Shown here: one piece after another, positions 3,522 to 57,536 of the stretch
Layout of the letters: every line of letters begins with the position of its first letter
Numbering within the stretch: position 1 is the first letter of the stretch
Assembly (NCBI GenBank): GCA_903930455.1
Contig: CAIYYT010000235.1
Coordinates: 771 to 64,770, forward strand
DNA: 64,000 bases
Direction of reading: 5' to 3'
Origin: an uncultured bacterium
GTDB taxonomy: Bacteria > Zixibacteria > MSB-5A5 > CAIYYT01
Made by a program: the position numbers and the translations under genes
Notes under the pieces: model-generated
The model's database searches: none
The model's input: only the letters and a program-made list of their open reading frames with translations
Told to the model about the DNA's origin: nothing

Positions 3522-3525
3522 TAGG

Positions 3526-27470: not shown

Positions 27471-28301
27471 TTACTCGGGAAATATCTTAGTGAGAAGCTC
27501 CCGCAACTCCAACAGAACGCTTTCGAATGTTGGCAGATTGTCAACTTGATGCGCCAATCCGCGCTCCCAGAACGGGGCTGCTTCATTGACCCGATCAGGC
27601 GCAAAGAAATCCTCGACGACAGGGAGTGTTATTTCTTTGAATTCACATTTCTTTTCCAATATACCGAGCGTGTCATCGATGACAATGTCTTTCTTGTGCT
27701 GCTTCAGTAGAATCCAGACGTCATAGTAATCCCGACTCTTCCCGCGCTGGAGGATACTCCTGAGTTTCTCTGCGACAATTTCCTCAAGTGAGTACACTGA
27801 TAGTCGTGCATCGATGTCGTCCGTGTAGTCTCGGTGGACGAGTCTGCTGTTGGATGACGTAATAATCTTCTCGTCGAAAGCGATGTCTACACGAATGTTG
27901 TTCTTCTGGCCACTGGCTTTGCGTAAGGGACCATCGTAGCCAAGCTTGAGCTGCACGCTTGTGAGTGTGTCGCCCGTTTTCGGATACTGCGAATACTCGA
28001 TAACCCGCATTGGAACTCCAAATAGCCGTGTGGCATTTTCAGTTGTCGTCTGAAAGATCGCCTTGATTTTCTTTGGTTTCAAGATAACCCGGGAGGTGAA
28101 ATCCAAATCTTCTGAGAATCGCCACTCTGGGAAGTAGCACTTTTTGAGTGCTGTTCCACCCTTGAAGAGCAAGGACTTTTGCACCTGCTCGCTCTGCGAC
28201 AGAGCCATGAGGGCTTTCGAAAGCACGTAGTCCTTCTCCACGATGCCGGGGTCGATCTTGGCTTGCGCTGCCTTGGTGCGGATTTCCGTAGGGTCGATCA
28301 T
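27471..28301 (-). CDS. AbiEii/AbiGii-family nucleotidyltransferase toxin (type IV TA / abortive infection)
   Basis: EKDYVLSKAL...LFKGGTALKKCY...RFSEDLDF is the DUF1814/AbiEii signature. Confidence 0.75.
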   Translation of the reverse strand: MIDPTEIRTKAAQAKIDPGIVEKDYVLSKALMALSQSEQVQKSLLFKGGTALKKCYFPEWRFSEDLDFTSRVILKPKKIKAIFQTTTENATRLFGVPMRVIEYSQYPKTGDTLTSVQLKLGYDGPLRKASGQKNNIRVDIAFDEKIITSSNSRLVHRDYTDDIDARLSVYSLEEIVAEKLRSILQRGKSRDYYDVWILLKQHKKDIVIDDTLGILEKKCEFKEITLPVVEDFFAPDRVNEAAPFWERGLAHQVDNLPTFESVLLELRELLTKIFPE

Positions 28302-28305
28302 AAAC

Positions 28306-29127
28306 TCAAGTCAGTCGCCAGTCAGTAAGACTTTTGGGGGTTACGTTTACGCGGACATGCCAATCAGCACAGATGAAACCAGTTTTGTTCTTGTTTGGGT
28401 CCAACAGCACAATGCTCGGTGTAACTAGCTTGAGTGCTTCTTTACGCGATCTGGCAGTCCAGAGGTCGAGGGTGTCAAGAAGAAATCCCAAACGCTTGAT
28501 AATCGAGACGTTTTCCATACGGACAGCATAGTCAACCACGGTTTCAAGGTTGGTGTCTTTCCTTCCGTTCCAAATGCCTTTGGCCACCTCGACGATCTCA
28601 CCACAATAGCGGGGCTGGTCGAGACAGTCGGCAATAGTCTTCTCTTTGTCAGCGACGGCAATTTTGCGGGTATCTACCCAATGCTCTGAAAACCCAAAAA
28701 AACGAGATTCTTTTAAGCGAACGAAGCGAATGGCGATTCCCTTAAGTTCTAACGGCAACTTCATTCTCTGCGTAGCAACATAGATCGTGCGTGACGGTTG
28801 TTCCGTCCAGCCGTAGAACTGCAGCGCTGTCCAGTAGCTCACGTAGTAGGGCTTGATCAGCTGGGAGGCGATGATAATACCTTCCTCTGTGTATTCTCCG
28901 GTCTTCCAAGCTGCAGGGGGAATGACCAAGTATTTCGCTTTCTCGATGCGAAGGAGTTTCTGCTTTTCGACAAGCCTATGAACGATCTGTGAGACCGTCT
29001 TGTTGCCAAACCCAAGCAGGCGGGCTGCTTCCTCAACAGAGAAAACCTTCAGCCCACTACTGCCGATGGTTGCGATGAGTTCTGCCTCCTGAGAACCTAT
29101 TCCGGTCATCTTTTTACGATTTATCAT
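28306..29127 (-). CDS. AbiEi-family antitoxin/transcriptional regulator
   Basis: An N-terminal wHTH (FSVEEAARLLGFGNKTVSQIVHRLVEKQKLLRIEKAKYLV) and a C-terminal AbiEi domain, with a 4-bp gap to AbiEii. Start taken at MINRKK. Confidence 0.7.
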   Translation of the reverse strand: MINRKKMTGIGSQEAELIATIGSSGLKVFSVEEAARLLGFGNKTVSQIVHRLVEKQKLLRIEKAKYLVIPPAAWKTGEYTEEGIIIASQLIKPYYVSYWTALQFYGWTEQPSRTIYVATQRMKLPLELKGIAIRFVRLKESRFFGFSEHWVDTRKIAVADKEKTIADCLDQPRYCGEIVEVAKGIWNGRKDTNLETVVDYAVRMENVSIIKRLGFLLDTLDLWTARSRKEALKLVTPSIVLLDPNKNKTGFICADWHVRVNVTPKSLTDWRLT

Positions 29128-29818
29128 TATTGCCTCAACGACAACAATCATAAACCGATGAAATCTGGTTGTCAAGTATAATTTGCCACAGAAAGAGGGC
29201 TTGAAATCAGAAGACTCCAAGCCCTTGCAAAAAACTTCGCCTTTCCCTGATTTGGTTTTGAAAAGGGCTGATTTGGCTGCGCCTTCAGCTGAGCAGTACA
29301 CCGGCCCCGCGCTCCAGGTCCACACGCCAGTTAGCTACAAGCAGAGTGCAGGAGTACGGAGTTAAGGGCTGCCCAGTGCGTGAATACCTCCTCGCCTTCC
29401 CGGAGTCCGGTGTTCCAGACAGCTTCGATTTTGTTTCCGGCCCAGAGACAATCATCAAGTTAGCCGTTCTCATCGACTCGGGCCACGGGATAATCCGAAT
29501 AGCGACCTCCAATGGTGATTTAAGCAAGTCAGTTACCACTCTTAGTGCGAAAACCGTCTGTCCCTCAAGTCTCCTCCGGAAGGGATTAACAAATTCTGGA
29601 AAGATGCAAACAGACTGAAGAACATTCCTCCAATTTCTGAAGAAATCAAGACCAGAAAATGATTGCCACTACTCAATCCATCTCTTAGTTTTCGGCACAC
29701 TTCGTCCGACTTGAATTGACGACGTACAGACCATGAAGGGGGAGATGAGTTCAGTAGAACGTGCTGCGAAATTGAAACAGGAGAGACAAGTTTACTGTAT
29801 ACTCTAGGAGAGGTAGGG

Positions 29819-31552
29819 ATGCTAGAACAGATAAGACAAGAAATTGTGAACGATCCATACTATCAACAGAACTTTGCCAACGATGGAGAGCGGTTCGTTG
29901 CATGGTATTTGAGACGTGTGCTACTCAGAGATGCAATCGCTACGCGCGACGACATCACTGATGGACAGAACGATAAGCAGATGGACGCCGTCATTGTCGA
30001 CGACGAGGATCGGAAAATCCTGATAATTCAGGGCAAATTCATCACCTCCAATCAGGTAGATTCCGAGCCACTCCGGGAGATCTTAGGAGCTTGGGTTCGT
30101 CTGCAGGACCTGCACTCGCTGCAGCAAGACTGCAACGAGAAACTGAAACTCAAACTTGAGGCAGTTCGTAAGGCACTTGATGATGAATACCGAGTCGAGT
30201 TTGTACTCTTGACGACTGGAACACTCACAGACGCTGCGAAGGCTGATTTGAAAGTGTTCGGAGACAAACTTGAAGATTTCGAGGAACTCTCAGCAAGCCT
30301 CCAGCTAGTTGATACGGAGGTTCTCGAAACGCAGCTAGCTGAAGCGGAAGCACAAGAACTGCCTTCGCTTGAACACGTTCTGACTACAGACCCCCAAAAG
30401 ACACTGGTCACGGAGCTTCAGGGGACCAAGACGATAGTAACAATCCTCCCACTTAAGGAGTGCCTGCGCATTCCTGGAATCACGGACGGCCGCTTATTTC
30501 GCAAGAATGTCCGGCAGTCACTTGGCGCGAACAATAGAGTCAACAAGTCGCTCCGAGCGACCATAAACGGCGAACGAGTTCGTGACTTCTTCTATTACCA
30601 CAACGGGATCACGGCAATCTGCGATTCTGCCATTTATTCACCTGAAAGTGGTACCCTCACCGTCAAGGGACTAAGCGTTGTAAATGGCTGCCAATCGCTT
30701 TCCACAATTTACTCCGTATCTGAACGAGTTCGGGCAACCGAGGCGAAAGATGCTCACATACTCTTCCGTTTCTATGAGATTCCGGATCGGGCGCTCGCTG
30801 ACCGAATCAGTATCAATACGAATTCACAAAGTGCAGTTAAGCCACGGGATCTTCGTAGTAATGACAAGGTCATGATGGGTCTGAAGCGAGCATTCGAAAC
30901 GCGCTATGCTGATGGCTTCTTCATGACGAAGCGGGGCGAGGAACGACCAGCGGACAAAGACGCTCAGAAATCGGTTGACGTAGCAGTGTTGGCCAAAATG
31001 CTGATGGCTTGGCATTGTCAACGGCCAAACATTTCTTACAACGAGAAGAAGTTGTTCGATGAGTATTACAAGACACTCTTTCACACCGGCTATAACCCTG
31101 CTTCGATTTTGGCTCTTCTGACCTGGCTAAACGCTATCGACAACGCGTGGCCGAATCTAGCTCTCAATGATGTGTTAAAAGCCGGGCGGTCGAACGTAAA
31201 ATTCCACGTGCTTTTCTCCGTCTCGTCTATTTTCGCGGCAGTGAACAAGCAGCCCATGCTCGTTGTGGACCCAAGCTCTACGATGATGGCAGCGGAGAAT
31301 CCGAGTGATGTCTTGCCCTTAGCAGCAAACTGCGTTGAGAACGCTCTTCAGAGCGCTCTCAACCAAGCGCAAATGAGTGGCAAGGTGTTTAGTCCTCAGA
31401 ACTGGTTGAAGAGTAACGCAAGTGTCCAAGGAGAAACTCTGGTTGCCGGTACAGTGGCTGGCTTGCTTCACAGCTTCCCCAACGGGAAGGCTTTGATGGA
31501 ACTCCTTCAAGTTCCTGCCGCGGCAATGTCAAACCGGTGGTCGGCAGACTAG
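29819..31552 (+). CDS. AIPR-family abortive infection protein
   Basis: FYYHNGITAICDSAIYSPESGTLTVKGLSVVNGCQS matches the AIPR INGxQT core. ~577 aa is typical. Confidence 0.7.
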   Translation: MLEQIRQEIVNDPYYQQNFANDGERFVAWYLRRVLLRDAIATRDDITDGQNDKQMDAVIVDDEDRKILIIQGKFITSNQVDSEPLREILGAWVRLQDLHSLQQDCNEKLKLKLEAVRKALDDEYRVEFVLLTTGTLTDAAKADLKVFGDKLEDFEELSASLQLVDTEVLETQLAEAEAQELPSLEHVLTTDPQKTLVTELQGTKTIVTILPLKECLRIPGITDGRLFRKNVRQSLGANNRVNKSLRATINGERVRDFFYYHNGITAICDSAIYSPESGTLTVKGLSVVNGCQSLSTIYSVSERVRATEAKDAHILFRFYEIPDRALADRISINTNSQSAVKPRDLRSNDKVMMGLKRAFETRYADGFFMTKRGEERPADKDAQKSVDVAVLAKMLMAWHCQRPNISYNEKKLFDEYYKTLFHTGYNPASILALLTWLNAIDNAWPNLALNDVLKAGRSNVKFHVLFSVSSIFAAVNKQPMLVVDPSSTMMAAENPSDVLPLAANCVENALQSALNQAQMSGKVFSPQNWLKSNASVQGETLVAGTVAGLLHSFPNGKALMELLQVPAAAMSNRWSAD

Positions 31553-35961: not shown

Positions 35962-36510
35962 TTTTCTCGCTCCACTCTAACACAAGAGAAACAACTGTCC
36001 CTGTTTCTCGCGCTGTCGCAAATCCCTGCTGACTGCAACTAGGTAGGTCAAGCTCCAAGTGTCTGTGAATTGCTTTACGTCAAGGTGTCGTGCCCAAAAC
36101 GGACTTGACTTGCGTCGCCAAACCAGATTGGACAGCTTGTAATGAAATTTAAGAAACAGCAGGGCTGTAGTCAATCTTTTTCTGAAAGTATGATGTATCA
36201 AAAACAGCATAGAGGATATTAGCTATGACAGCTTATCGACTCCACGATTGACATACACCTCTCGCTAACATTTTGCTAACAGACTTAGCTAAAATACCAT
36301 GAAATAGGGGACAACACCGGACAAATCGGACTTGCGTAAGCTCTTGGCGCTGTTACAGTTTGTTGTCCGGTGCTGCCTACTGGTTGGGCGGCAGGACAGG
36401 CGCATGACCCGAAGGTTTGCTTCTTGTCGCAGACAAGCATCATAATTTCACCGCAGAATGACCGAGACTAGGAAATGTGTCCGGAAGGATTGAGTCCTTA
36501 ATCTCGCCAT

Positions 36511-36540
36511 ATAAAAAACCAGTCGACTGTTGTCGACTGG
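36511..36540 (-). terminator. Rho-independent terminator downstream of 36554-37126
   Basis: 9-bp stem CCAGTCGAC/GTCGACTGG with a 4-nt loop, adjacent to an A6 run (U-tract on the minus strand). Confidence 0.6.
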
Positions 36541-36553
36541 CTGTGAATGTTCG

Positions 36554-37126
36554 TTACCCGGCATCTACTCCGAGCATATGTAGTTTGATTTGTGTTTCTC
36601 TACTTCTCCTTTCTTCGAACGTAGTGTAGGTTTCCTGTTTGTGTTTCCAAGGTGGTGACCATTTCTCTTCGTCATGCCCGAGAAGGAAGCTCTCAGGGTT
36701 CACAACGTCTGCTATAGCGATTAATCCTTCAATCCGCCCTGACATGACTGCAGTTACTGCTGTTTGTGGAAATCTGAAGGATTCTCCTAATTGCTCCTTT
36801 TTCAGCCACTCAACCAGGTTGTGGATTAAACTTGGAGCCCAGAAGATCTCTAACCCGCAAACATTGTATACCTGATGGGCAGTTGAGATAATCGCCTGCC
36901 CGCCTGAGACAGTGAGCACGCTGAAAGGCATGTCTTGTTCATGGTACTCAGAGATGAAATCTTTGACGTCGACTGGCTCGTCCGTAGCAAAGTAGGCCTT
37001 CAGAATCTCCTTACATCGCGGGCAAATGAAGCCCGAAAGCAGAGGACGGCGTAATTCACTCTGTTGGTTACCATTGTCCCTGAATACTATTTCTCTTCCT
37101 TCAATTCGCATGCTCACTTTCCACAC
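36554..37126 (-). CDS. Hypothetical protein (190 aa), co-transcribed with the methyltransferase-helicase
   Basis: ORF overlapping the stop of the upstream gene by 13 nt. C-x2-C (CPRC) is present. No family recognised. Confidence 0.45.
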   Translation of the reverse strand: MWKVSMRIEGREIVFRDNGNQQSELRRPLLSGFICPRCKEILKAYFATDEPVDVKDFISEYHEQDMPFSVLTVSGGQAIISTAHQVYNVCGLEIFWAPSLIHNLVEWLKKEQLGESFRFPQTAVTAVMSGRIEGLIAIADVVNPESFLLGHDEEKWSPPWKHKQETYTTFEERRSRETQIKLHMLGVDAG

Positions 37127-40100
37127 TCCTTTCTTTTGAGCATCTCATTGACGAAGTCCCGGATTGAGAGTGGGTGCACCTTTTCGGTTTGCATCTTGTG
37201 GTCAATGGCCTCATTGATAGCTGCTTGCTTCAGATAGAGCAATTCGTACATGTCCTCATCAATGGTACCTTTAGACAACAGATAGGTAACCTGTACCGAC
37301 TGTTCCTGAGAGATTCGGAGCAACCTTCCTTCAGCTTGGACCATCGAACTCGGGCACCAGTCAAGGTCGGTCATAAGAGCGTGGTTTGCCCGGGTAAGAG
37401 TCTGTCCAAGATTCATGGCGAGAAGTCCCGCGACAAGTGCCTTTGGTTCAGGCTGTTTCTGGAACTCCTCAATAACTTCGTTGCGGACATCGATGGGTGT
37501 CGACCCAATCAGCAGAGGTGCCTTCAATGTGCCTGAGATCAATATCGCGTTAGGGTTGTAGCCGGTGAATATGACTGCCTTGTTATTCTGAGGAATATTC
37601 TCCAGAATGTCATTCAGTGCTTTGTGCTTGTTGGTAAGCCTTCCTCTGAACGCCGGTCCACCATCTTCTCCTGTGAATATGTGCGGACAAGTAGCGGCCT
37701 GACGAAGTTTCCAGAGCTGCCCGAGAATAGCAGCATTCTTCATGGTGTAATTGGCGTCGCGCTCTTCAAGCTCTAGCTGCTCCCTATACCACTCCACAAA
37801 GTTCTCATACCACCAGTCATAGACAGCTTTCTGGTCGACATCCATTTCCACCATGATGACTTTGACCTCCTTCGCCGGCAACTGGATCGATTGTTTGACC
37901 ATCGGGTCATCGACCAACCTTCTTATGACTTTCGGGCCCATCAGCTGCCAGAATGCGGGAAGGTTGTTCACTTTTGGCACCATCTTCTTCTTGCCCTGGA
38001 TACGATCTTGATATTCATCCGAAACGTATTCGTAGGTAGCGAATTGGCTAATAAACCTTTTCGCTCCTCCACGCCAGGGGTATGGAAATCCCGGCGATCC
38101 GCCGCCAAAGCACCAGTGAAGTTGCCAAAACATATCCGGGACGTACCCTTTGATCAGTGTACCTGTAAGAAGAAGCTTCCGCTTGGCCTTCAGGGACGAA
38201 ACTGCCTGAGAACGCAAGCTATTCTTTGTCTTCATCATCTGGCTCTCATCGACAATGATCATGCCCCAGGTCCTCCGTTTCAGCCTCTTGACAAGCGACG
38301 GAATCCAAGCACGATCAACATAGCCACACGATCTACAACCGTGCCCTGACCACGCTTCACTCTTGCATTGCGGGCAGACTAAAGCTCCCGTTCTTCGCCA
38401 GCCACAAATACAGCATTCGCCTCTGACTGTCTTGCCACAGGAAGGACAGACGATCGGATCGAGCGAGGCAACTCCTTGCCGGCTCAGCTTCTCGTACGAC
38501 ACAATAGTAAACCGCGACGTGTTTTCTATGTCCCTGGCAGATTTGATGACAGCTACACTGTCAATGCCCAGCTTCGCCAACTCGTCCGTCCAGACTTTGA
38601 CTAGGCGAGAAAGACAAATGACGAGCACTCGTCGGCTGCCGGCAATCAGGGCCGTGGCTATGGACGTACGTGTCTTACCGAGCCCCATGTCATAGAGAAG
38701 CGCGTTAAACGGCTTGCACGCCAGACGCGCAGCATCCATTTGCTGGTACTCGAAAAGGAAAGGTGACAGGCCCAACAAATCCAGTTTGCGTCGGTTTACT
38801 CCGTATGCATCGGGGATGTGGTCTTGGAGTAACGGGGAAGAAGACTCCTTGTACTGAGCTTTGCGCTTTTTCTTGATTTTTGGTGGCTCTGAGTAGGTCT
38901 GATAGACAAACTGTTGCCTTTGCCACCAGCGACGCTTACGAGCTATCCAATGAGCAAGCCCGGTATCGTATTGCCAGTTGATCTGATATGCCTCAAGCAA
39001 ATCAAGGACCTTAGGCTTGTTCGCAGAAGTATAGAACGCGCTCAACGATATAAGTTCCTGATACGGATCATCATCACGCCAATGGTCCTTTGAACAACGT
39101 ACTTCACGGATTTCTGCCAGCTTCAATGCTGTGAGGATATCGCCGGAGAAAGGAATGACAGAATATCGGCCTTTCTTGAGAAGAAGACCTTCGGCTGAGG
39201 ACGAATCTGCCGGTTTCTCTTTTGCTATCGAGACGACATTCAGTGAGTTCTTTCGCTCCGGCTCAACCGGACCGAGGTCTCGAATTTCAGCCGCAAAGGC
39301 AAGAGCGTCGACGTAGGATTGTTCTGCAAACCAGGCATTCCTGACTCGGGCAAAGCAGCCCTCATCTCCACTGCCATTTGCAGGAAGAAGGTCGCTAGCG
39401 CCAACGACAATTCTGAACGCGGGCCGGTCAGGTGCAGGCAACTTCCGCATGACCAGCAGAGTCGTCCTTGCTTCGACCCCCTGCTCCTTGAAGGTCTCTT
39501 TTGGCAGGTCAATTTCTGCTGCTATTCTGGTCTGGCCGCGATACCAGCGACGAAAAGACACCATGTCGGGTCGCTTCAGCGAGCCTTTTGGTAATATGAC
39601 CGCAAGGTATCCCGACGGCATCACCGCCCGAATCGCTAATTCCAGACAAGCAACGTGTGACAGAATCTTCCCGCCGAAACCCACGAGATCAAGCTTGAGA
39701 TTCGTCTTCCAGTTCAGCCCAAAAGGCGGGTTGAGCAGGGCATAATGAAACTGATTCTCAAACAGATACTCCAAGCAGTCACCTTGGATTACAGTCTGAC
39801 CGGGGAAAAGCGCTCGTGCCACAAGACACGCTTCTTCCTGGAACTCGATACCAGTAGCATAACAACCTTGCGGAAGGTGCCAGAACATCGCTCCGTGTCC
39901 GCAGGTGTTATCAAGAACTCTGGCTCCCTTTGGAATGGACAACATGTCTACCATGAGTTTTGTAACTGAGGCAGGTGTGAAGTACTGGCCCAGCGCCTTA
40001 TGTGAGGCTGCCAGGAAGTTCTCCCCTTCTTCTTTTTCCAGGAGCCCTCCAACTCCAGTGTAGAGTCGAAAGACTTCCTCTCGATCAAATGCACCTGAGG

Positions 40101-40251
40101 AGACCAGTTCCAATGCTTGTGTGTTGTCGTGGCGGCGCTTTGCCTTTAGATCACACGGTTGATCCTCGTTGCGCCTTTGCCCCCCAGGTGGACCAGTCGT
40201 TACTTGACTGACCCAAAGTGATAGTTGCAGCTCATGTGTATGTTGCGACAC
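37114..40251 (-). CDS. Fused N6-adenine DNA methyltransferase / SNF2-family helicase with inserted zinc ribbon
   Basis: N-terminal region: GARVLDNTCGHGAMF (motif I) and LLNPPFG (NPPF motif IV). C-terminal region: DMGLGKTRTSIA (SNF2 motif I), VDESQMMK (DExx) and a helicase-C region. Zinc ribbon: CPSCGKT...CCICGW...CPQCKS...CRSCG. Confidence 0.8.
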   Translation of the reverse strand: MSQHTHELQLSLWVSQVTTGPPGGQRRNEDQPCDLKAKRRHDNTQALELVSSGAFDREEVFRLYTGVGGLLEKEEGENFLAASHKALGQYFTPASVTKLMVDMLSIPKGARVLDNTCGHGAMFWHLPQGCYATGIEFQEEACLVARALFPGQTVIQGDCLEYLFENQFHYALLNPPFGLNWKTNLKLDLVGFGGKILSHVACLELAIRAVMPSGYLAVILPKGSLKRPDMVSFRRWYRGQTRIAAEIDLPKETFKEQGVEARTTLLVMRKLPAPDRPAFRIVVGASDLLPANGSGDEGCFARVRNAWFAEQSYVDALAFAAEIRDLGPVEPERKNSLNVVSIAKEKPADSSSAEGLLLKKGRYSVIPFSGDILTALKLAEIREVRCSKDHWRDDDPYQELISLSAFYTSANKPKVLDLLEAYQINWQYDTGLAHWIARKRRWWQRQQFVYQTYSEPPKIKKKRKAQYKESSSPLLQDHIPDAYGVNRRKLDLLGLSPFLFEYQQMDAARLACKPFNALLYDMGLGKTRTSIATALIAGSRRVLVICLSRLVKVWTDELAKLGIDSVAVIKSARDIENTSRFTIVSYEKLSRQGVASLDPIVCPSCGKTVRGECCICGWRRTGALVCPQCKSEAWSGHGCRSCGYVDRAWIPSLVKRLKRRTWGMIIVDESQMMKTKNSLRSQAVSSLKAKRKLLLTGTLIKGYVPDMFWQLHWCFGGGSPGFPYPWRGGAKRFISQFATYEYVSDEYQDRIQGKKKMVPKVNNLPAFWQLMGPKVIRRLVDDPMVKQSIQLPAKEVKVIMVEMDVDQKAVYDWWYENFVEWYREQLELEERDANYTMKNAAILGQLWKLRQAATCPHIFTGEDGGPAFRGRLTNKHKALNDILENIPQNNKAVIFTGYNPNAILISGTLKAPLLIGSTPIDVRNEVIEEFQKQPEPKALVAGLLAMNLGQTLTRANHALMTDLDWCPSSMVQAEGRLLRISQEQSVQVTYLLSKGTIDEDMYELLYLKQAAINEAIDHKMQTEKVHPLSIRDFVNEMLKRKECGK

Positions 40252-40579
40252 AGGTATTCTCCTTTCTTCGCAGTCATTGGCGTTGTTACTAGCCTGAAGG
40301 CTTTTGCTGTGATTCGTGATGCCTGAGTGGGTGGAGTGATGCTAAGTCATTGAGGGCTATCTTGTGGTTCTGTCATCTTCCAGTTCCCCAGAACGAAAGC
40401 GCAATTGTGGGACTGTGGATGATACAGGGCTCTTTTTGAGACAAGGAAGTTCTCTGTTAGTATCTTTTCGCAGTTCGCTCAGAGTCTCCCTCAAAGTTTC
40501 AGGCATTTCGCTCGCAATTGTGAGGAAAACGTCACTTCTCGTATGCAGGCTATCTGTTCGAGAAAGTCAGCGAGTACTG

Positions 40580-40609
40580 AGAAAGAGTAAGAGGGCTTGA
40601 ATTCGATTC
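40580..40609. terminator. Strong hairpin (possible bidirectional terminator)
   Basis: 11-bp perfect stem GAGGGCTTGAA/TTCAAGCCCTC with an 8-nt loop. On the minus-strand transcript it is followed by a T-rich run, ~70 nt downstream of the DUF932 gene. Confidence 0.5.
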
Positions 40610-40679
40610 TTCAAGCCCTCGCGAACGTGCATTGCCCTTCCCATTCCATACTTTCAAAGGTGCTGCAGTCTAGTTTTGC

Positions 40680-41744
40680 TCAATTAAGCAGAGCGCCTGC
40701 CCGGCGTTCGAGGTTTACTCGTTTATCCGCAAACGGCAGAGTCCGGGCAAATGCGGTCAGACCCTGGGTCAGACCCCAACGGGTGGTCACATCTTCGCCT
40801 TCTGCAAGACCAACGTTCCAAGCGCTCGTGAGTTCATTTTTGGTGAACGGCAGCTGCTTATTCGAATACATTACCTCCTCAAGCGTAGCTCCGAGACGAT
40901 CATTCATCGCCTGCGTGACTGAGTCTCTAATGCGATCATCGAGATTTCGGTTCTCGACAAATGTGTTTAGGACCGGGATCGCGTCGCGATAGAATCGGGA
41001 AAGCGCCCGATTGCGATGAACGATTTTCAGTTCCTGCACCTCTTCGGCTCCCCAGACAATGTGATTACCGCAGATGAAGTTGTACAAGAATATCGTGAGA
41101 CCGAACGTCGCCGAACCAGTCTCAGAGTTCCAGAGGAAGAACCCCTTGCCGAGCCGTGCATTTCCGACTTCGACCGGATGTTCGTCGTTGATGAGAAAGA
41201 CGAACATATCCCGATCGGAAGCGTAGAGGCCTGCAGAGCCAGCCTTGGAATCTGGTGGATGCCAGTTCGTGTCTCTAACGGCTTCCAGAAGCTCCGAAAT
41301 GACATCGTAGTCCCATATGCGGCCGTAGGTAGTGCTGGTAAAAGCAGAGACGGCGTTGCTGAAACTGCTTTCATCGGACTCGGGGCTGTCGTCTTTCCTT
41401 ATGAGTAGCTTCGCTTCGCCGCCCGCCTTTGCCATGCCGTATTCGAGGCACTGCACAGCCATGTCTGCTGACAGAGTTCTCAAGTATCCAGCCGGAGCCC
41501 TCACTTGCTGGCACAGTTGTGAAAACGACCAGTTGGTGAGTGCGGAGTGCGGAACGTGGCCGTTCAGGAACATTCCGCCGCCGTGCGTTGCATGAAGTCG
41601 CAAATCTCGCAATGCATAGATCTCTTCCAGTGCGTTACGCTTGCGTCTTCCGGTGAATTCGAGGATCTCGTCAAGTGACTTGAAACGTTCATCTAGTGGC
41701 CTCTTCACCCATTGCTTGTGGGCGTCGATGAGAATCGTGGACAT
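40680..41744 (-). CDS. DUF932/DUF945-type phage/plasmid-like protein
   Basis: GLYASDRDMFVF...GKGFFLWNSETGSATFGLTIFLYNFICGNHIVWG resembles the DUF932 family common in ICEs. Start taken at MSTILID. Confidence 0.6.
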   Translation of the reverse strand: MSTILIDAHKQWVKRPLDERFKSLDEILEFTGRRKRNALEEIYALRDLRLHATHGGGMFLNGHVPHSALTNWSFSQLCQQVRAPAGYLRTLSADMAVQCLEYGMAKAGGEAKLLIRKDDSPESDESSFSNAVSAFTSTTYGRIWDYDVISELLEAVRDTNWHPPDSKAGSAGLYASDRDMFVFLINDEHPVEVGNARLGKGFFLWNSETGSATFGLTIFLYNFICGNHIVWGAEEVQELKIVHRNRALSRFYRDAIPVLNTFVENRNLDDRIRDSVTQAMNDRLGATLEEVMYSNKQLPFTKNELTSAWNVGLAEGEDVTTRWGLTQGLTAFARTLPFADKRVNLERRAGALLN

Positions 41745-41767
41745 AGTGTTTTGCTCCTTTCTTGGAA

Positions 41768-42532
41768 TCATCCACGCCATTTCTGGCAAACATCAAAGTA
41801 CTCGCAGCTAGGGCACAGCCATCCGGCACTTGGGTAGAAATGTCCAGAGTGAATGCCCTCGATCACGCGCTTGGCCAGGTGAAAGAAACGAACCTTGTCG
41901 TTCTGATCCCGGAAGACTTCGAAGCTATGCAGTTGTGGTTTCTTAGTCTTCGTGAGGATGTCGAGACGAAGATTTGGCTCGCGTTTCCGTAGCCAGCTGA
42001 AGGCATAGGCGTATGCGGTGAGTTGGAGATGCTGGGTGATAGTTGTGAGGTCGTACACTTTGGCAGCTGTCTTTAGCTCCACCACTGTGTCGCCTTCTTC
42101 CAGAAGATCGAAGTAGCCGTCCAGCGGAAGATCAATTCTCTCGCCCGTCTCTAGGTCAACAAGGGGTACTCGGAAACCTTGCTCGACCGCTTTCGGCGTT
42201 GTCCCTTTGTATTCTTTGACGTATACGGCAAGAAGCTCTTTGCCCTTGTCAATCAGAGAGCTGAGATCGTCTCCGTTCTTGAAGCGAATTTCATCCACAG
42301 CTTGCGCATTCAAATCAGCTTCGAATACCGATGCAATATCCTGCCATTCGCGATTTCGCTCGGCCTGCCGTTCCTTATGCCACCATTCGATGGCTGAGTG
42401 GATGGCACTGCCGAATGCGAGTTCAGCGGCTTTGAAAGGCTTTGGCAATTTGTCGATGTAGTTGAACCGGTATTTCAGCGGGCACAACAGGTACAGATTG
42501 ATCTGTGAAACGGAAATGTGGTCCCGCATCAC
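41768..42532 (-). CDS. PD-(D/E)XK nuclease, Cas4/RecB/YqaJ-like (PDDEXK_1)
   Basis: N-terminal SVSQINLYLLCPLKYRF, ELKT (catalytic E-x-K), and a C-terminal Cys cluster YPSAGWLCPSCEYFDVC. Confidence 0.7.
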   Translation of the reverse strand: MMRDHISVSQINLYLLCPLKYRFNYIDKLPKPFKAAELAFGSAIHSAIEWWHKERQAERNREWQDIASVFEADLNAQAVDEIRFKNGDDLSSLIDKGKELLAVYVKEYKGTTPKAVEQGFRVPLVDLETGERIDLPLDGYFDLLEEGDTVVELKTAAKVYDLTTITQHLQLTAYAYAFSWLRKREPNLRLDILTKTKKPQLHSFEVFRDQNDKVRFFHLAKRVIEGIHSGHFYPSAGWLCPSCEYFDVCQKWRG

Positions 42533-43236
42533 GCTGGCACTCCTTCCAAGCCGACATTCAGAATGTGGTCGATCAGGGTGCTGGCGTCAGGTTTTGAGGC
42601 ATCCTTGAGGGACTCCACGCCGAGCGTCCGCTTCAGGTAGTCGTGGGCATCATCGCCAGTGACCCCACGTTCGGCAAGTAGGCGGAACAAATAGCGACGT
42701 TGATTTTCGGTCATGGGCTCGTCTGGTGGACCCTGGCTGGAGTGATGGCTGTTTCCGTTGCTGTCGGAACCATCGTTGCCGTTTCCCCCGGCTGCCGTCG
42801 CGGCTGCACCCCTCGTCCCATTTCCATGGCCGTTATCCCCAGCGCCGTTGGTGAACTCATCAGTCAGTTCTTCGAGGGCAATAACGCCGACGTTCACAGC
42901 GTCCCGCAAGGCCCTCGCCTTGGCGCGGGTAAATGCCATGCGGATGATGTGCGGAGCAATGATGGCGTCGACGTTGTTGGGGTTGGCATCCCCGCACTCG
43001 GTGAATACCCCTTTTTCTGTCACCACTTTCGCCATAGAAATCGCGGTCATTTCGTTGTCCGCGGAAGGGGCTTGCAGAAGCTTGGTTTCGATCTCTTTCA
43101 AGCCTTCCTGGTGGGCGCGATTGAGCAAGCCAGCGTAAGTGACAACCTCTTTGGTCGCCACAACCCGGCCTTGGCGGTCCTTGATCTCGATGGTCGTGAC
43201 CAAGTTCGACTGGGTGGTCATGAGACCTCCTCTCAT
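42529..43236 (-). CDS. Hypothetical protein with Gly/Asn-rich linker, possible ssDNA-annealing partner of the nuclease
   Basis: A ~120-aa N-terminal domain, a low-complexity NGAGDNGHGNGTRGAAATAAGGNGNDGSDSNGN linker, and a conserved-looking C-terminal helical domain. The SSAP assignment is by context only. An internal start at 43221 is possible. Confidence 0.35.
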   Translation of the reverse strand: MRGGLMTTQSNLVTTIEIKDRQGRVVATKEVVTYAGLLNRAHQEGLKEIETKLLQAPSADNEMTAISMAKVVTEKGVFTECGDANPNNVDAIIAPHIIRMAFTRAKARALRDAVNVGVIALEELTDEFTNGAGDNGHGNGTRGAAATAAGGNGNDGSDSNGNSHHSSQGPPDEPMTENQRRYLFRLLAERGVTGDDAHDYLKRTLGVESLKDASKPDASTLIDHILNVGLEGVPA

Positions 43237-43402: not shown

Positions 43403-44680
43403 ATGACGAATAGAGAACTCCTCATCCTCGGAGAGACAAACTACCGCAATGACCGAAAGCGGTTCGGTATACTCAAAGAAGATCGCCGGCGACATATGTA
43501 TATCGTTGGCAAGACAGGCATGGGGAAGTCTACACTTCTACTGAACTGCATTGTGCAGGATATTCAGCGCGGGAACGGCGTCGCAGTACTTGACCCGCAT
43601 GGTGACCTTGTGGAGCGCGTCTTGGACTACATCCCGCCGAAACGGATTAACGAAACAATCTATTTCAATCCCGCTGACACCGAGTACCCGATTGCCTTCA
43701 ACCCTCTGTATCACAAAGATGTGTTTCAAGGACACCTTGTGGCCTCGGGTCTGATTCAGGTCTTTAGGAAGATCTGGGCTGATTCCTGGGGACCACGGCT
43801 GGAGTATGTCCTGCGGAATGCAATTCTGGCGCTCCTGGAGAATCCCGGCAACACGTTGCTTGGCATTCCTCGGTTATTGACCGATGATTTGTTTCGCCAG
43901 AAGATCATTAGAGGTGTCAAGGATCCGATTGTGCGGAACTTCTGGGAAGTGGAGTTTGAGCAATATCCCAAGGTCTTCCGGACCGAAACAATCTCACCTA
44001 TTCAGAACAAAGTTGGGCAGTTTCTGTCAACGCCGATCATTCGCAATATTGTCGGGCAGACGAAAGCAAAGTTCGACCTTAGCGATGTACTTGATTCAGG
44101 CAAGATTCTGCTGATGAATCTTTCCAAAGGTAAGATTGGCGAGGATAATTCTTCGCTCCTCGGCGCGCTGATGATTACGCAAATCCACTTGGCCGCTGTC
44201 AAGCGGGCTTCGATGCCTGAAGAGAGACGGCGCGATTTCTACTTGTATGTTGACGAACTGCAATCGTTCGTGACGGAGGACTTTCCTTCGATATTATCAG
44301 AGGCACGAAAGTACCGACTCTGCGTGATTGCCTCGAATCAATTTATCTCGCAATTGCCTGAATCAATTTCAGCATCACTACTTGGAAACGTAGGGACACT
44401 GATATCGTTCACTGTTGGATTTGAAGATGCGGAAACTCTTTCCCATGAGCTTGACTCTGTGTTCAGTGCTGATGATCTCCGGGGATTGCCGAGATACAAT
44501 GTTTACTTGAAGCTATCGATTGGAGGATCTACCTCACGCTCATTTAGTGGCGAGACCTTGCCACCATATCCGGCGAGCTTCCGATCAGGGACAGCGAGAG
44601 TCATTGAGCAGAGTCGCCAAAGGTACTGCTTGGGATGCACGCACGCGGACAGCAAGATCAGGAAGTGGATTGCAGGCTGA
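43403..44680 (+). CDS. VirD4/TraD-like coupling-protein-family ATPase, soluble paralogue of 9158-10792
   Basis: Walker A GKTGMGKSTLL. Shared motifs with the first copy: IYFNPAD, GKILLMNLS, FYLYVDELQSF, ARKYRLCVIASNQ. Confidence 0.65.
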   Translation: MTNRELLILGETNYRNDRKRFGILKEDRRRHMYIVGKTGMGKSTLLLNCIVQDIQRGNGVAVLDPHGDLVERVLDYIPPKRINETIYFNPADTEYPIAFNPLYHKDVFQGHLVASGLIQVFRKIWADSWGPRLEYVLRNAILALLENPGNTLLGIPRLLTDDLFRQKIIRGVKDPIVRNFWEVEFEQYPKVFRTETISPIQNKVGQFLSTPIIRNIVGQTKAKFDLSDVLDSGKILLMNLSKGKIGEDNSSLLGALMITQIHLAAVKRASMPEERRRDFYLYVDELQSFVTEDFPSILSEARKYRLCVIASNQFISQLPESISASLLGNVGTLISFTVGFEDAETLSHELDSVFSADDLRGLPRYNVYLKLSIGGSTSRSFSGETLPPYPASFRSGTARVIEQSRQRYCLGCTHADSKIRKWIAG

Positions 44681-46879: not shown

Positions 46880-48097
46880 TCAGGCGCTGACTTCTGCTGT
46901 GCTTGCTGGAATGCACACGAACCGTGAAGCAAGCAACGCCGCGCAACAGACAATTATCCCTGCGCCGACATAGACGGCCCGAATCCCAACGATGTCCGCA
47001 AGAATTCCGCCTGCGCCCATGGACAGAAGCTGGCTGAGTTGCCCGAGCACGCCCATCGTCGCGAACGTTCGACCCATGACGGCTTCATGTACATGTTTCT
47101 GAAGCACGGTATCGATAGTAATTGAGAGGAGCGTTTGAGAGACGCCGACAATCGCGAAAAGAACCAGGGCAATCCATGCATACGAACAAAGGGAGATGAG
47201 AAGCAGAGACAAACCTAACGCTATGTATGCAGATCGCAAGACGGCTTCCTCGCTGAGCCTGCCGCGAAACCAGGTGACAAAAGCACCAACGAAGCTGCCT
47301 ACGGCGGTTGCGGAGATGATCATGCCGTACAAAGCGTCACTGCCATTGAGCAATTCCTTCACGAATATGACGGCCAGTACAACGATAGCGCCCGCGCCAA
47401 GCTGCATACCCGCGTCAGTAACTAGCACCCATTTCACGAGGCTGTTGCTCCGTATCTGTCTAAATCCCTCAATTGCATCGAGCCAAGGAGCCTTCATGCT
47501 CTTCCACTCGCGTCTCTCGTGCTGAGTCTGCGGGATTGGAATCGATAAGATGACAACGGCCGAAATGAAATAGGTCACGGTGTTGAAAACGCAGACGAAA
47601 GTGAATCCGAACTGAGCATACATGATCCCCGCCAAGCCCGGACCGACAATTCTCACTAGCTGACTGCTCATTTCTCTTAGTGAATTCGCCTCCAATAAGG
47701 CTTTCTTCCCAAGAATCATGGGCAGCGACGCTGAGTAAGCAGGGCTGAAAAAAAGCCCCACCAGAGTAGAAGCAAATACGATCACGTAGAAAGCGGGAAT
47801 ACTGGGAGTAAACGCCATGATCAGGAAAAGCAATGCTCGAACAACGTCAGAGATCACCATTACCCATTTACGGCTATATCGGTCTACGATTACTCCCGCA
47901 AAAACGCCAATGACTACGGAAGGAATGGCCATGGCGATCTCGAGGAATCCGACTGCTGCTCCAGAGCGTGTTTTGTCGTAGACATACAGGCTGAGCGCAA
48001 TCAGGTTGATCAGCGTGCCGAGTTGTGACTGAGTCAATCCGATCCACAGTCTCAAGAACTGTCTGTTGGATACCAACAGGCCTATTCGCTCACGCAT
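46880..48097 (-). CDS. MFS transporter (probable exporter of the RiPP product)
   Basis: 12 predicted TM segments and an MFS motif-like DRYSRKW between TM2 and TM3. Confidence 0.75.
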   Translation of the reverse strand: MRERIGLLVSNRQFLRLWIGLTQSQLGTLINLIALSLYVYDKTRSGAAVGFLEIAMAIPSVVIGVFAGVIVDRYSRKWVMVISDVVRALLFLIMAFTPSIPAFYVIVFASTLVGLFFSPAYSASLPMILGKKALLEANSLREMSSQLVRIVGPGLAGIMYAQFGFTFVCVFNTVTYFISAVVILSIPIPQTQHERREWKSMKAPWLDAIEGFRQIRSNSLVKWVLVTDAGMQLGAGAIVVLAVIFVKELLNGSDALYGMIISATAVGSFVGAFVTWFRGRLSEEAVLRSAYIALGLSLLLISLCSYAWIALVLFAIVGVSQTLLSITIDTVLQKHVHEAVMGRTFATMGVLGQLSQLLSMGAGGILADIVGIRAVYVGAGIIVCCAALLASRFVCIPASTAEVSA

Positions 48098-48105
48098 TCC
48101 GTCAC

Positions 48106-48462
48106 CTAGACCGTGTCTTCGTCCGCAGCAGAATACTCGCCAGAACCATCGTCTGCAAGTATCCTGATGATTCCGGCAACGCGCAGTTGACTAACGAATT
48201 CTCTGGTATCCTGCTCAAGCGCAGCTCGTGTTTGTTGCTGACCAAACAGGTCCTCCATCCTTTTGAGCAGGTCACTGAGGGAAACGGCGGTACGTGATCC
48301 GACGCCTGCTATGGACTTCCAGATTTCGATTCCCGCGGCGGACTTGATTGCCGCTTCCTTGCTCTCGCCTCGCCTGTTGAAGATCTTGATCGCGCCCAGC
48401 TTGTCCTGTGACCAGCGTATATGGCGTTCAACTTGCATCAACACTGTACGCACTCCTTGCAT
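48106..48462 (-). CDS. PqqD-family protein (RiPP recognition element)
   Basis: A ~100-aa protein with a PqqD-like pattern (IWKSIAGVGSRTAVSLSDLLKRMEDLF...EFVSQL). It overlaps the radical SAM gene by 25 nt. Confidence 0.6.
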   Translation of the reverse strand: MQGVRTVLMQVERHIRWSQDKLGAIKIFNRRGESKEAAIKSAAGIEIWKSIAGVGSRTAVSLSDLLKRMEDLFGQQQTRAALEQDTREFVSQLRVAGIIRILADDGSGEYSAADEDTV

Positions 48463-49568
48463 TCAAACGGACCATGGCCGTTTCGTTTCCCCTCTGCGAT
48501 GTACTGGTCGAACTGCCTGCATTCAGTGTTCACGCCCTCGCCATATCTAGCTACGTCCAATGGACACGGCTCGCAAGTCTCAAACAGCGGACAGTCCTTG
48601 CAGTAAGGTAGATGCTCATACAGGGCACCATAGTGTGCGAATGTATAGAACGATTTCAAGTACTCGGAGTCAACTATTTCCTCAAACGTGTGCCTGGCCA
48701 CACTAAGTTCTTGATGCTGAACGGCACCGTGAAGAATGTCGAGCGGAAAGTCAGAGCAGTAGTTACAGGGAGACACCAGGCCATCTGCGCGAATGTACAT
48801 CGTCTCGGAGCCCGCGGGGCAGTACCGATCCACCTGCAGTTTGAGTCCATATTTCTCGTTCAAGAGGTGTCGTATCCGGGGAGAACCAAAGTTGAGAACC
48901 GAGATGTCGATTGCTCGTTCCTGTGCCATTAGCCGGGCAATCTGATGGAGGCAGTCCCATGTCTGCTCGCGACTCGGAAGGAATGCCCTCGCCTCTTCAT
49001 GCAGCGCCTTCAACGCATCGAAGCTAACGAAATCAAGGCTCTGCGACTTGGCCAGTGTGACAATAGGGGTGATCTCCGCAATGTTTGCTTGATTGATGGT
49101 GCACTGAATGCCAATCTGGGACGTGCAGCCCTTCTCGTGGAAGTACTTTGAGAGCCTTCCGAGGCAGCCGACGGACTTTTCGAAGGAACCCTTTCCTCTG
49201 AGGCAGTCGTTGGATGCTGGCGTCGCGCCATCAATGCTGAAGGCAATCTGACTGGGAGCGATCTCCGCCAGGTCTACGATTGTCTCGTCGTCGAGCAGAA
49301 TTCCGTTTGTTGCCACATTGCAGCAAATTCCTGTGCCCTGGGCGTATCTCAGAATCTCAAGCATGTCTTGACGGGCGAACGGTTCTCCACCTAGAAACTG
49401 GATGTGCTCGACTTCGTCTCTCGGGAGTGTTTGGAGGAATGCGAGTATGTCTGACGTTGACAAGTCGCCAGTTTTCGCGGCCACTCCGGCGGCATCATAG
49501 AGTCGAAAGTTATAACAATGTTTGCACGACAGATTGCACTTGCTCGTTATATCCCAAGCAATGATCAT
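48438..49568 (-). CDS. Radical SAM/SPASM-domain peptide maturase
   Basis: N-terminal CNLSCKHCY (CxxxCxxC). C-terminal Cys-rich SPASM-like region CPAGSETMYIRADGLVSPCNYC...YCKDCPLFETCEPCPLD. Confidence 0.8.
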   Translation of the reverse strand: MIIAWDITSKCNLSCKHCYNFRLYDAAGVAAKTGDLSTSDILAFLQTLPRDEVEHIQFLGGEPFARQDMLEILRYAQGTGICCNVATNGILLDDETIVDLAEIAPSQIAFSIDGATPASNDCLRGKGSFEKSVGCLGRLSKYFHEKGCTSQIGIQCTINQANIAEITPIVTLAKSQSLDFVSFDALKALHEEARAFLPSREQTWDCLHQIARLMAQERAIDISVLNFGSPRIRHLLNEKYGLKLQVDRYCPAGSETMYIRADGLVSPCNYCSDFPLDILHGAVQHQELSVARHTFEEIVDSEYLKSFYTFAHYGALYEHLPYCKDCPLFETCEPCPLDVARYGEGVNTECRQFDQYIAEGKRNGHGPFECKECVQC

Positions 49569-52343: not shown

Positions 52344-52359
52344 TTCGTGCCCCTCTTGG

Positions 52360-52707
52360 TCAAATGGCGTCCTCGTTCCAGCCATGGTCTCTGGCAATAT
52401 CTGTCCAGGGCTTGTGCGGATCGGTGCCGCTTTTCTGAGGCTCGTCTGGAATCGGCGGCTTGCCTTCCACGATTGTGAAAGGTAGACCAAACCAACTGCG
52501 GAAGCAGTACTTCAGGATGGAAATAATCGTCTTCCCAGTCGGAGCCGGCATACTCGTCTCTGGCGATGCAAGTGTCGGCTTGACCTGGCTGATTGCGTGC
52601 GCACATTCCTTGGGTGAGTGCACCTTGCCGTCCGCCAACAAGGGCGTGCAAAGGACCAACATCCCGATGAGGACCAACGGGATAAAACAATGGACCATCT
52701 TTCTCAT
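52360..52707 (-). CDS. Small secreted protein, hypothetical
   Basis: Signal peptide MRKMVHCFIPLVLIGMLVLCTPLLADG. ~115 aa. Confidence 0.4.
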   Translation of the reverse strand: MRKMVHCFIPLVLIGMLVLCTPLLADGKVHSPKECAHAISQVKPTLASPETSMPAPTGKTIISILKYCFRSWFGLPFTIVEGKPPIPDEPQKSGTDPHKPWTDIARDHGWNEDAI

Positions 52708-53330: not shown

Positions 53331-53374
53331 GGCTCATAACCCGAAGGTCGCAGGTTCAAATCCTGCCCCCGCTA
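53331..53374. repeat. Direct repeat (attR core): displaced 3' half of tRNA-fMet, followed by CCA
   Basis: 44 bp identical to 742-785. Here the repeat continues gctaCCA, matching a native tRNA 3' end. There is no 5' half upstream. Confidence 0.85.
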
Positions 53375-54534: not shown

Positions 54535-54819
54535 TTGCTTTTCACCTCCTTTCAGTCTGGCATGGCTATAAGGTTTAAGGGCCTGGAGTTCATTGCAGTG
54601 CCTAGCGAAGTCACAGCGCAGCGATTGCAGCGAGACCGAGACCGAAGGTCGGTTGGCAACTAAAAACCGCGTTGCCAGATACGATACTGCAGAACGGCTG
54701 ACAAAATCTGGCCGGTGCGATGCGTTCGAAAAAGCACTCATTATGAAGCAACATACGGCAATTCTCCCGCGATTTCAAGTGCTGTTTGCCCTTTGGTGAT
54801 TCTGACTGCCGGCGCAGTA

Positions 54820-57415: not shown

Positions 57416-57536
57416 GTAAACGACGAAATCGATGAAAGTGCTGTATTGCTGATATGTTGATGCGATGTTGATGTCTCGGAATGGTTGAAGTATGGTTTCG
57501 AGCGGATTCGCGATGTTGGATTCACCTCGTGGTTTT

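Follow-up and report, generated by a model that had tools for sequence, protein, structure and literature searches.

Within a 64,000-nucleotide stretch of DNA from an uncultured bacterium of the Zixibacteria (GenBank assembly GCA_903930455.1, contig CAIYYT010000235.1, positions 771 to 64,770; hereafter the window), we characterized a gene on the minus strand that encodes a 1045-residue protein, here called the fusion, in which an N6-adenine DNA methylase is joined to an SNF2 ATPase. Judged from its sequence, the fusion is a standalone DarB-like methylase-helicase dyad of already known architecture, to which a zinc ribbon, a small partner protein (p190) and an association with a four-gene DNA-handling backbone have been added. 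The genes for the fusion and p190 form a two-gene cassette on an integrated island. We give an even chance to the reading that this cassette provides translocation-coupled protective methylation of element DNA, i.e. counter-restriction. Related loci are designated below by L numbers.

The fusion is read from a GTG start codon located 7 nt 3´ of a Shine-Dalgarno-like AAGGAG. Every Pfam domain of the protein clears its curated cut-off: N6_Mtase at the N-terminus (51.9 bits, cut-off 20.4), SNF2-rel_dom at residues 518–854 (62.1 bits, cut-off 24.9) and Helicase_C at residues 875–980 (36.6 bits, cut-off 23.5). The methylase part contains GQYFTP (residues 88–93, with FTP at 91–93), VLDNTCGHG (112–120) and NPPF (174–177), and the SNF2 part contains GLGKT (523–527), DESQ (668–671), TGT (696–698) and QAEGRLLRISQ (972–982). 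SNF2 motifs I, II, III and VI are all preserved and do not vary among the relatives aligned. A zinc ribbon with four Cys pairs (C602-x2-C605, C614-x-C616, C626-x2-C629 and C639-x2-C642) is placed between motifs I and II. Ten full-length relatives, all metagenomic, share 60–92% identity with the fusion, and the catalytic motifs and all four Cys pairs are invariant across them. The first-pass annotation of this DNA had described a single 1045-residue open reading frame (ORF) combining an NPPF-type methylase, a complete SNF2 ATPase and a four-Cys-pair zinc ribbon, and this composition is borne out by the Pfam domains, the motifs and the ten relatives.

Mean pairwise identity is 0.20 in the N-terminal tail (residues 2–37), 0.67 in the LPD36-like segment and methylase, 0.59 in the zinc ribbon (residues 601–645) and 0.73–0.79 in the SNF2 regions outside the ribbon. 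The middle domain (residues ~355–500), which matches no Pfam family, occupies the position of a target-recognition domain and aligns weakly to the plasmid relatives described below. The ratio of nonsynonymous to synonymous substitution rates (dN/dS) is 0.135 in a gapless 3138-nt alignment with the 92% identical relative L025, which indicates that the fusion gene is under purifying selection.

Among solved structures, the N-terminal part is closest to the DNA adenine methylase M.TaqI (E 2.4e-7); Type I HsdM subunits come next. Because these are the closest structures, the assignment as a DNA methylase holds, and a protein or RNA methylase, the outcome against which the first-pass annotation had set its proposal, is not indicated. 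In the PDB, the SNF2 half is best matched by the Sulfolobus SNF2/Rad54-like core (1z63, E 1.4e-21), and it also matches eukaryotic remodellers. The motor half is further matched by phrog_62, 'DNA helicase' (E 5.4e-71), a family that is also matched by phage genes bearing the annotation DNA helicase or helicase. The region from residue ~8/37 to ~275 is matched by phrog_24008 (E 6.7e-31), phrog_1685, phrog_11801 and the DarB-like phrog_10089 (E 2.6e-8). A tblastn search with the N-terminal 244 residues retrieved phage genes whose annotations read N-6 DNA methylase, helicase or, in phages Parlo, JC1 and Skulduggery, 'DarB-like antirestriction protein'. Together, these family searches point to proteins of phages and mobile elements and away from defence proteins.

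The architecture of the fusion corresponds to that of the 'DNA methylase-helicase dyad' (Iyer et al., 2017, PMC5512222). The dyad opens with an LPD36 domain, which has some four helices and bears a GXGU motif; an adenine methylase of the EcoKI/TaqI type follows, marked by NPP(Y/F) and an N-terminal TP motif, and a SWI2/SNF2 ATPase forms the C-terminal part. It is common among proteins of phages and conjugative elements, not only in polyvalent ones; its archetype is phage P1 DarB, and counter-restriction is the role proposed for it (Iyer et al., 2017). The fusion resembles the DarB-type dyad in its domain order. An invariant YTGxGGL (Y64, T65, G66, G68, G69 and L70) lies just N-terminal of a gamma-class adenine methylase with FTP and NPPF, and the SWI2/SNF2 ATPase lies C-terminal to the methylase. 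The fusion is likewise encoded on a mobile element, and its methylase part matches DarB-like phage proteins. The DarB-like option raised by the first-pass annotation is thus supported by homology, both through the phage matches and through the layout of LPD36-like segment, methylase and SWI2/SNF2. Unlike dyads that are part of polyvalent proteins of 2000 to >4000 aa, the fusion is a standalone protein of 1045 aa. It also lacks a virion or type IV secretion setting for delivery, carries a clade-specific four-Cys-pair zinc ribbon in SNF2 lobe 1 and has an obligate small partner gene, p190.

A phage protein of similar size and the same three-part layout is BPT24_034 of Tenacibaculum phage pT24 (1001 aa, annotated 'helicase'). 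It shares 29% identity with the fusion over the LPD36-like segment and methylase (E 2e-22), with YTGDGGL aligned, and 19% identity over the SNF2 part (E 2e-5), while the zinc-ribbon segment of the fusion (602–642) falls outside the alignment. The profile of phrog_24008 ('helicase', 1006 positions) likewise matches the LPD36-like and methylase part. Full-length collinear relatives with 24–29% identity are carried by conjugative plasmids of Burkholderia/Caballeronia and by the archaeal megaplasmid pMETHO01 of Methanomethylovorans, and others occur in metagenome-assembled genomes (MAGs) of Solirubrobacterales. The SNF2-related proteins of Burkholderia/Caballeronia (e.g. WP_062174943.1) and pMETHO01 (WP_342664122.1) have the order methylase, middle region and SNF2 and have every catalytic residue in common with the fusion. 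In contrast to the fusion, these plasmid relatives lack the zinc-ribbon insertion, a clear GXGG motif and an adjoining p190, and their neighbours differ as well, being PRTRC and DUF1173 genes in Burkholderia. Since the relatives from Burkholderia and Methanomethylovorans lack the zinc-ribbon insertion and those from Solirubrobacterales have it only in part, it is a feature specific to the clade of the fusion. No close relative of the fusion was found in IMG/VR, where only the SNF2 part is matched (21–42% identity), or among GTDB species genomes, where the best matches have 24–31% identity (Caldithrix, 30%). A megablast search of positions 36000–42000 against plasmids gave no match. Identical proteins are present in metagenome contigs from ENA, NCBI and Logan.

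p190 directly follows the fusion gene. Its most likely start is the GTG that overlaps the TGA stop of the fusion gene (GTGA), and the two genes would thereby be translationally coupled. In every related locus read, the gene immediately 3´ of the fusion gene is a p190 homologue. A CxxC...H...C pattern is conserved in the family, p190 is a predicted zinc-binding protein, and its dN/dS against L025 is 0.27. Family searches with p190 gave no match in Pfam, NCBIfam, PHROG or PADLOC, and its profile gave only chance-level matches to PDB sequences. An AlphaFold2 model built from a 5-sequence alignment is too poor for use (predicted local distance difference test, pLDDT, 45.7; predicted template modelling score 0.31). 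An exhaustive HMMER search recovered only 25 cluster representatives among 1.84 billion, and the family is very small. A C-terminal DUF6573, the only informative domain found, is fused to two of these 25 relatives (P0164 and P0169). DUF6573 is a small plasmid protein family that occurs on 251 plasmids, of which 147 are conjugative; our literature search found no paper naming it. On pMETHO01, a p190 homologue (HMM E 8.9e-12) lies 7 kb downstream of the fusion homologue of the plasmid, as a separate gene (L001, 18955–19611) that overlaps an HD-domain gene.

Terminator-like hairpins flank the two genes on both sides, and DNA similarity to L025 stops at 36513, immediately beyond the downstream hairpin. 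The fusion and p190 therefore constitute a self-contained two-gene cassette. A hairpin is also present 5´ of the fusion gene in L003, L008 and L009. The same three loci contain, between the ATPase gene of the backbone and the fusion gene, a conserved 54-aa ORF (MYSPK...LVNQAV.DFL; L003 9751–9915, L008 9737–9901 and L009 907–1071) that precedes the hairpin, is absent from the window and by eye resembles a small ribbon-helix-helix regulator. The 430 bp that precede the fusion gene contain two copies of the sequence CACAATTGCG (40400–40409 and 40513–40522, minus strand), and the window contains three, against 0.22 expected; it was rejected as an operator, as it is not conserved in L025. Synonymous divergence from L025 is lower for the fusion and p190 (0.30) than for the exonuclease gene of the backbone (0.70), which suggests that the cassette may have been exchanged more recently than the backbone.

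The neighbours named by the first-pass annotation (the 190-aa protein, DUF932 and PD-(D/E)XK) are all present, but the order it gave, with the fusion following the 190-aa protein and preceding the other two, is reversed by transcription from the minus strand: PD-(D/E)XK, DUF932, fusion and then the 190-aa gene. Our analysis adds that the 190-aa gene shares an operon with the fusion and that DUF932 and PD-(D/E)XK belong to a separate, widespread backbone within the island. This backbone comprises four genes. The DUF932 protein scores 23.2 bits with Pfam (cut-off 23) and matches phrog_1362 (E 4.7e-24); in L019 and L021/L022 the equivalent place is taken by relatives of 58–61% identity. The exonuclease matches PDDEXK_1 (E 1.2e-29), the PHROG exonuclease families 1218 and 69, and Cas4 models. 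For the annealing protein, a structure model with pLDDT 62 was compared with viral models by Foldseek and retrieved proteins annotated as single-strand annealing protein (SSAP), RecT, Bet, ERF and Rad52, while its profile gave only chance-level matches to PDB sequences. As in the Lambda Red 'SynExo' pair (Redβ and Exo), a Rad52/Redβ-like N-terminal domain is combined with a Redβ-like C-terminal three-helix domain, and the exonuclease gene overlaps and directly follows the annealing-protein gene. On both counts, the annealing protein and the Cas4-like exonuclease are a Red-like annealing-protein/exonuclease pair. The fourth protein, a soluble ATPase, matches TrwB_AAD_bind (E 1.1e-13) and phrog_5156 (E 1.8e-51). 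The annealing-protein family has 1324 matches, with named relatives mostly in Zixibacteria MAGs.

The backbone also occurs widely without the fusion; L019 and L021/L022 carry the ATPase and, in divergent order, the annealing protein, exonuclease and DUF932 genes at 55–69% identity. There, the slot 3´ of DUF932 is filled by other genes, namely Avs2 in L019 (12880–16779, E 8.7e-178) and, in L021 (12797–20741) and L022, a helix-turn-helix protein, an HKD+SNF2 protein (DrmD-like, E 1.9e-36), a Type IIG-like methylase and a Ser/Thr kinase. The four-gene backbone may thus mark a defence hotspot. The cassette lies after DUF932 in the window, in L025 and in a 23-kb ENA contig, directly after the ATPase in L003, L004, L005 and L008 and probably after it in L009, and after the annealing protein in L006/L007. 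It is joined to at least one backbone gene in all nine related contexts read, in three arrangements, and a functional tie to the backbone is therefore favoured over random cargo.

Alternatively, the main task of the SNF2 motor could be that of a Rad54-like accessory in recombination or replication, serving the Redβ-like annealing protein and exonuclease in branch migration, annealing or fork remodelling of element DNA, while the methylase would mark newly made or recombined element DNA. The annealing protein adjoins the cassette in most contexts, the best PDB match of the motor is the SNF2/Rad54-like core from Sulfolobus, and phrog_62 is its strongest family match. The backbone, however, is common without the fusion, and the motor is therefore not needed by it. 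The N-terminal domain of the annealing protein is common in viral contigs. Phage contigs with this domain lack the other backbone genes, and a related SNF2 is rare on them (3 of 68). The tight fusion to a DarB-type methylase and the p190 partner would also be left unexplained, and we regard an accessory role in recombination as distinctly improbable.

The cassette and the backbone lie on a mobile element. A perfect 44-nt repeat of the 3´ end of a tRNA-Met gene delimits an integrated island of 52.6 kb, which contains an integrase beside the tRNA, two Replic_Relax genes, further recombinases, AbiEi/AbiEii and AbiU. A Pfam scan for defence components covered the large ORFs (at least 100 aa) from 16556 to 63485, that is, at least 20 kb on each side of the fusion gene. 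No capsid, terminase or VirB4-type gene was found among the large ORFs scanned.

The fusion was compared with several known defence systems. DISARM class 1 (DrmD SNF2 and DrmMI N6 methylase) and BREX-related/Hma systems likewise combine an N6-adenine methylase with an SNF2 ATPase, but they place the two activities on separate proteins and add DrmA/B/C or a helicase-fused nuclease, none of which is present here. Systems of an N6 methylase and an SNF2-nuclease (BREX-related/Hma-type) have been described (PMC12839542), and a similar system fills the equivalent slot in L021. DISARM was rejected, since the large ORFs scanned contain no DUF1998 or PLD and the NCBIfam DrmD model reaches 24.1 bits where 610 are required. 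BREX and BREX-related systems (BR, Hma) were rejected as well, as the fusion and its neighbours contain no PglX, PglZ, BrxC, BrxB or nuclease-fused SNF2; PglX, PglZ and BrxC are also absent from the large ORFs scanned. The HmaA model matches only a short C-terminal-lobe stretch of the fusion (residues 914–1019, E 2e-9). Hence the DISARM/BREX alternative offered by the first-pass annotation falls away, and its own remark that it saw no DUF1998/PLD or PglX/BrxC neighbours is upheld by the scan.

MAD6, MAD7 and MAD8 are mandatory in MADS, in which MAD2 is the methylase (bioRxiv 10.1101/2023.03.30.534895). Two MADS models match genes of this locus, mad2 the fusion (E 1.8e-20) and mad8 the ATPase (E 2.3e-16), both as partial domain matches, and the pT24 protein matches mad2 as well as the fusion does. 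MADS was rejected, with no mad6 or mad7 match among the proteins scanned and an NCBIfam MAD2 score of 63.6 bits against a cut-off of 720. Zorya was rejected because the ZorD models cover the SNF2 core only (NCBIfam 47.8 bits, cut-off 1500) and no ZorABC is present; a DpdE model also matches the SNF2 part. Type I and Type ISP restriction-modification were rejected because neither the fusion nor p190 has a nuclease or Methylase_S domain. In Type ISP enzymes of the LlaGI/LlaBIII type, one polypeptide holds both a DNA translocase of SF2 and an adenine methylase of the gamma class; these enzymes have an N-terminal Mrr-like nuclease, the motor before the methylase and a C-terminal target-recognition domain. 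In contrast, the fusion has the methylase before the motor and no detected nuclease domain.

A defence function is the main rival of counter-restriction. The fusion and p190 might form a compact restriction-modification or BREX/DISARM-type cassette, in which self DNA would be marked by the methylase and DNA would be scanned by the SNF2 motor. Invader DNA without the mark would then be stopped or degraded, either by p190 or by a nuclease that is recruited, and the adjacent FtsK/HerA-like ATPase and Cas4-like nuclease might help as a 'capture' system. HerA/FtsK-anchored capture systems have been proposed (PMC12839542). The slot after DUF932 holds Avs2 in L019 and the HKD+SNF2, Type IIG-like methylase and kinase genes in L021/L022; defence genes lie nearby in the window (AbiEi/AbiEii and AbiU) and in L004, L005, L006 and L008; and the SNF2 part matches ZorD, DpdE and DrmD models while the methylase matches MAD2. 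These model matches, however, are generic and far under the equivalog cut-offs. Neither the fusion nor p190 showed a nuclease domain, and the PD-(D/E)XK neighbour is paired with the annealing protein, is widespread without the fusion and is not beside the cassette in L006/L007. The fusion has only an indel-rich linker and no fast-evolving domain resembling a target-recognition domain, and its methylase falls within the phage/plasmid DarB-like clade. We consider such a defence cassette unlikely. It also seems rather unlikely that the cassette represents a methylation-based kind of defence not described before, possibly working with the backbone ATPase and Cas4-like nuclease, and that the backbone is a new carrier with a defence-hotspot slot.

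Counter-restriction is favoured by the status of the fusion as an orphan methylase of a mobile element, with neither a nuclease domain in cis nor an evident restriction partner. The same reading is favoured by the place of the methylase and LPD36-like part in the DarB-like clade, by the occurrence of relatives on plasmids and in phages, by the constant attachment to a DNA-handling backbone, by the setting in an island with tRNA-Met repeats, integrases and Replic_Relax/T4CP-like pairs (T4CP, type IV coupling protein), and by the fusion of p190-like domains to DUF6573, for which 147 of 251 plasmids are conjugative. Under counter-restriction, the SNF2 motor would track along duplex DNA of the element using ATP, and the tethered methylase would deposit N6-methyladenine as the motor moves. 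The motor may also push DNA-bound host proteins off. Element DNA would thereby be shielded from the restriction systems of the recipient when the island is transferred into, or re-established in, a new cell. The translationally coupled p190, with its predicted zinc site, could be a dedicated partner in regulation or targeting. The cassette would ride on a backbone that handles incoming DNA through its soluble T4CP/FtsK-like ATPase, Redβ-like annealing protein, Cas4-like exonuclease and DUF932 protein.

Several points weigh against counter-restriction. We know of no activity data for any standalone dyad, and the role of the methylase domain of P1 DarB is itself an inferred one. DarB is packaged in the virion and then injected; the island has no capsid or mating-pore genes among the large ORFs scanned, which leaves delivery or early expression unexplained. 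The slot after DUF932 in relatives holds bona fide defence genes and the island itself carries AbiE and AbiU, and by position alone defence is as plausible as counter-restriction. Identity to annotated DarB-like proteins is only ~26% and is confined to the methylase region, the N-terminal segment is called LPD36-like on the basis of its motif and alignment, and the structure model of p190 reaches a pLDDT of 46. The coordinates of all features are listed in Table 1.

Table 1. Positions in the window of the cassette, its domains, the backbone genes and the island boundaries.
Feature	Position	Strand	Details
LPD36-like / N6-adenine DNA methylase / SNF2 ATPase fusion gene	37114–40251	minus	1045 aa; ORF and translation
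LPD36-like segment	40018–40140	minus	Residues ~38–78; invariant YTGxGGL (GXGU motif); PHROG profiles reaching upstream of the methylase
Gamma-class N6-adenine DNA methylase catalytic domain	39433–40017	minus	Residues ~79–273; Pfam N6_Mtase, M.TaqI match, invariant motifs
Hypervariable indel-rich linker	39190–39432	minus	Residues ~274–354; mean pairwise identity 0.28
Conserved middle domain	38752–39189	minus	Residues ~355–500; mean pairwise identity 0.52
SNF2 (SWI2/SNF2) ATPase, both RecA-like lobes	37117–38751	minus	Residues 501–1045; Pfam, PDB, phrog_62, motifs
Zinc-ribbon insertion, SNF2 lobe 1	38326–38448	minus	Residues 602–642; eight Cys invariant in 11 sequences
p190 partner gene	36554–37117	minus	187 aa from GTG at 37117 (most likely start); ORF to 37126 (190 aa); small Cys/His-containing protein
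Terminator-like hairpin after p190	36517–36542	minus	11-bp stem then TTTTAT; ends the fusion-p190 operon
Terminator-like hairpin after DUF932	40591–40620	minus	Splits the backbone operon from the fusion-p190 cassette; conserved in L025
DUF932 protein, backbone gene	40680–41744	minus	354 aa from ATG, agreeing with public gene calls; ORF 40680–41789
Cas4/RecB-like PD-(D/E)XK exonuclease, backbone gene	41768–42529	minus	253 aa (ORF to 42532)
Redβ/Rad52-like single-strand annealing protein, backbone gene	42529–43221	minus	230 aa; structure model and Foldseek
Soluble TrwB/VirD4/FtsK-HerA-like ATPase, backbone gene	43403–44680	plus	425 aa; divergent from the annealing-protein operon
attL, tRNA-Met 3´ end	742–785	plus	tRNA at 711–786; left island boundary; integrase at 864–1814 (plus)
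attR	53331–53374	plus	Perfect 44-nt repeat of tRNA-Met 3´ end; right island boundary

Other genes of the island were also recorded. The Replic_Relax genes lie within 8277–10792 and 13627–14634. The first adjoins and is coupled to a T4CP-like ATPase (9158–10792, 544 aa), which is a 35% identical paralogue of the backbone ATPase, and just upstream of this pair is a 77-nt direct repeat with 75% identity (7400–7476 and 8039–8115). A LexA-like S24 repressor (15806–16471) and a RuvC-like nuclease (14618–15253) stand beside the second. A set of Replic_Relax, DUF8128 (T4CP-like) and integrase genes is located beside the cassette in L009. The AbiEi/AbiEii toxin-antitoxin (E 2e-75 and 5.9e-76) and AIPR/AbiU (E 1.8e-38) genes lie at 27471–31552, 5–10 kb from the cassette; AbiE genes are also found near the cassette in L004 and L005, and L008 has an AbiEi-methylase fusion. 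Beside the island integrase, the region 1925–6897 encodes an AAA_28 ATPase, a nucleoside 2-deoxyribosyltransferase, a PNP_UDP phosphorylase, a HisG-like phosphoribosyltransferase, a 324-aa protein and a thymidylate-synthase-like protein, and this nucleotide-metabolism-like cluster could be a nucleotide-depletion or DNA-modification module of defence or counter-defence. The regions 46880–49568 and 50172–52490 encode a RiPP-like set (RiPP, ribosomally synthesized and post-translationally modified peptide) of a radical SAM/SPASM enzyme, a PqqD-like protein and a major facilitator superfamily transporter, together with a tetratricopeptide repeat-sigma54 activator.

A second tyrosine integrase gene (53356–54741, minus strand) ends within the right-hand repeat, which suggests that a second element is inserted in tandem and reaches or passes the end of the window. 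This putative element (55016–62042) carries a 'TOTE conflict system'-type AEP primase domain (55016–55630), a 360-aa protein, an ORC/Cdc6-like AAA+ ATPase (57537–58730) and a 988-aa protein without a Pfam match.

Methylase-SNF2 dyads are among the commonest modules carried by phages and conjugative elements, yet to our knowledge none apart from that of P1 DarB, and no standalone dyad, has been studied. If the fusion were merely another DarB-like gene, it would be ordinary for a mobile island; if the defence reading were true, a single polypeptide would both mark self DNA and motor along DNA. The cassette occupies a slot that holds defence genes elsewhere, and it thus offers a test case for defence versus counter-defence cargo on the same carrier. 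The clade of the fusion would be a tractable model, being compact (~1 kb of protein) and terminator-bounded, with the motifs of both enzymes intact, a defined zinc ribbon and one partner. Such a model could address processive or non-specific methylation by a DNA motor, the protection of incoming DNA and the contribution of p190.

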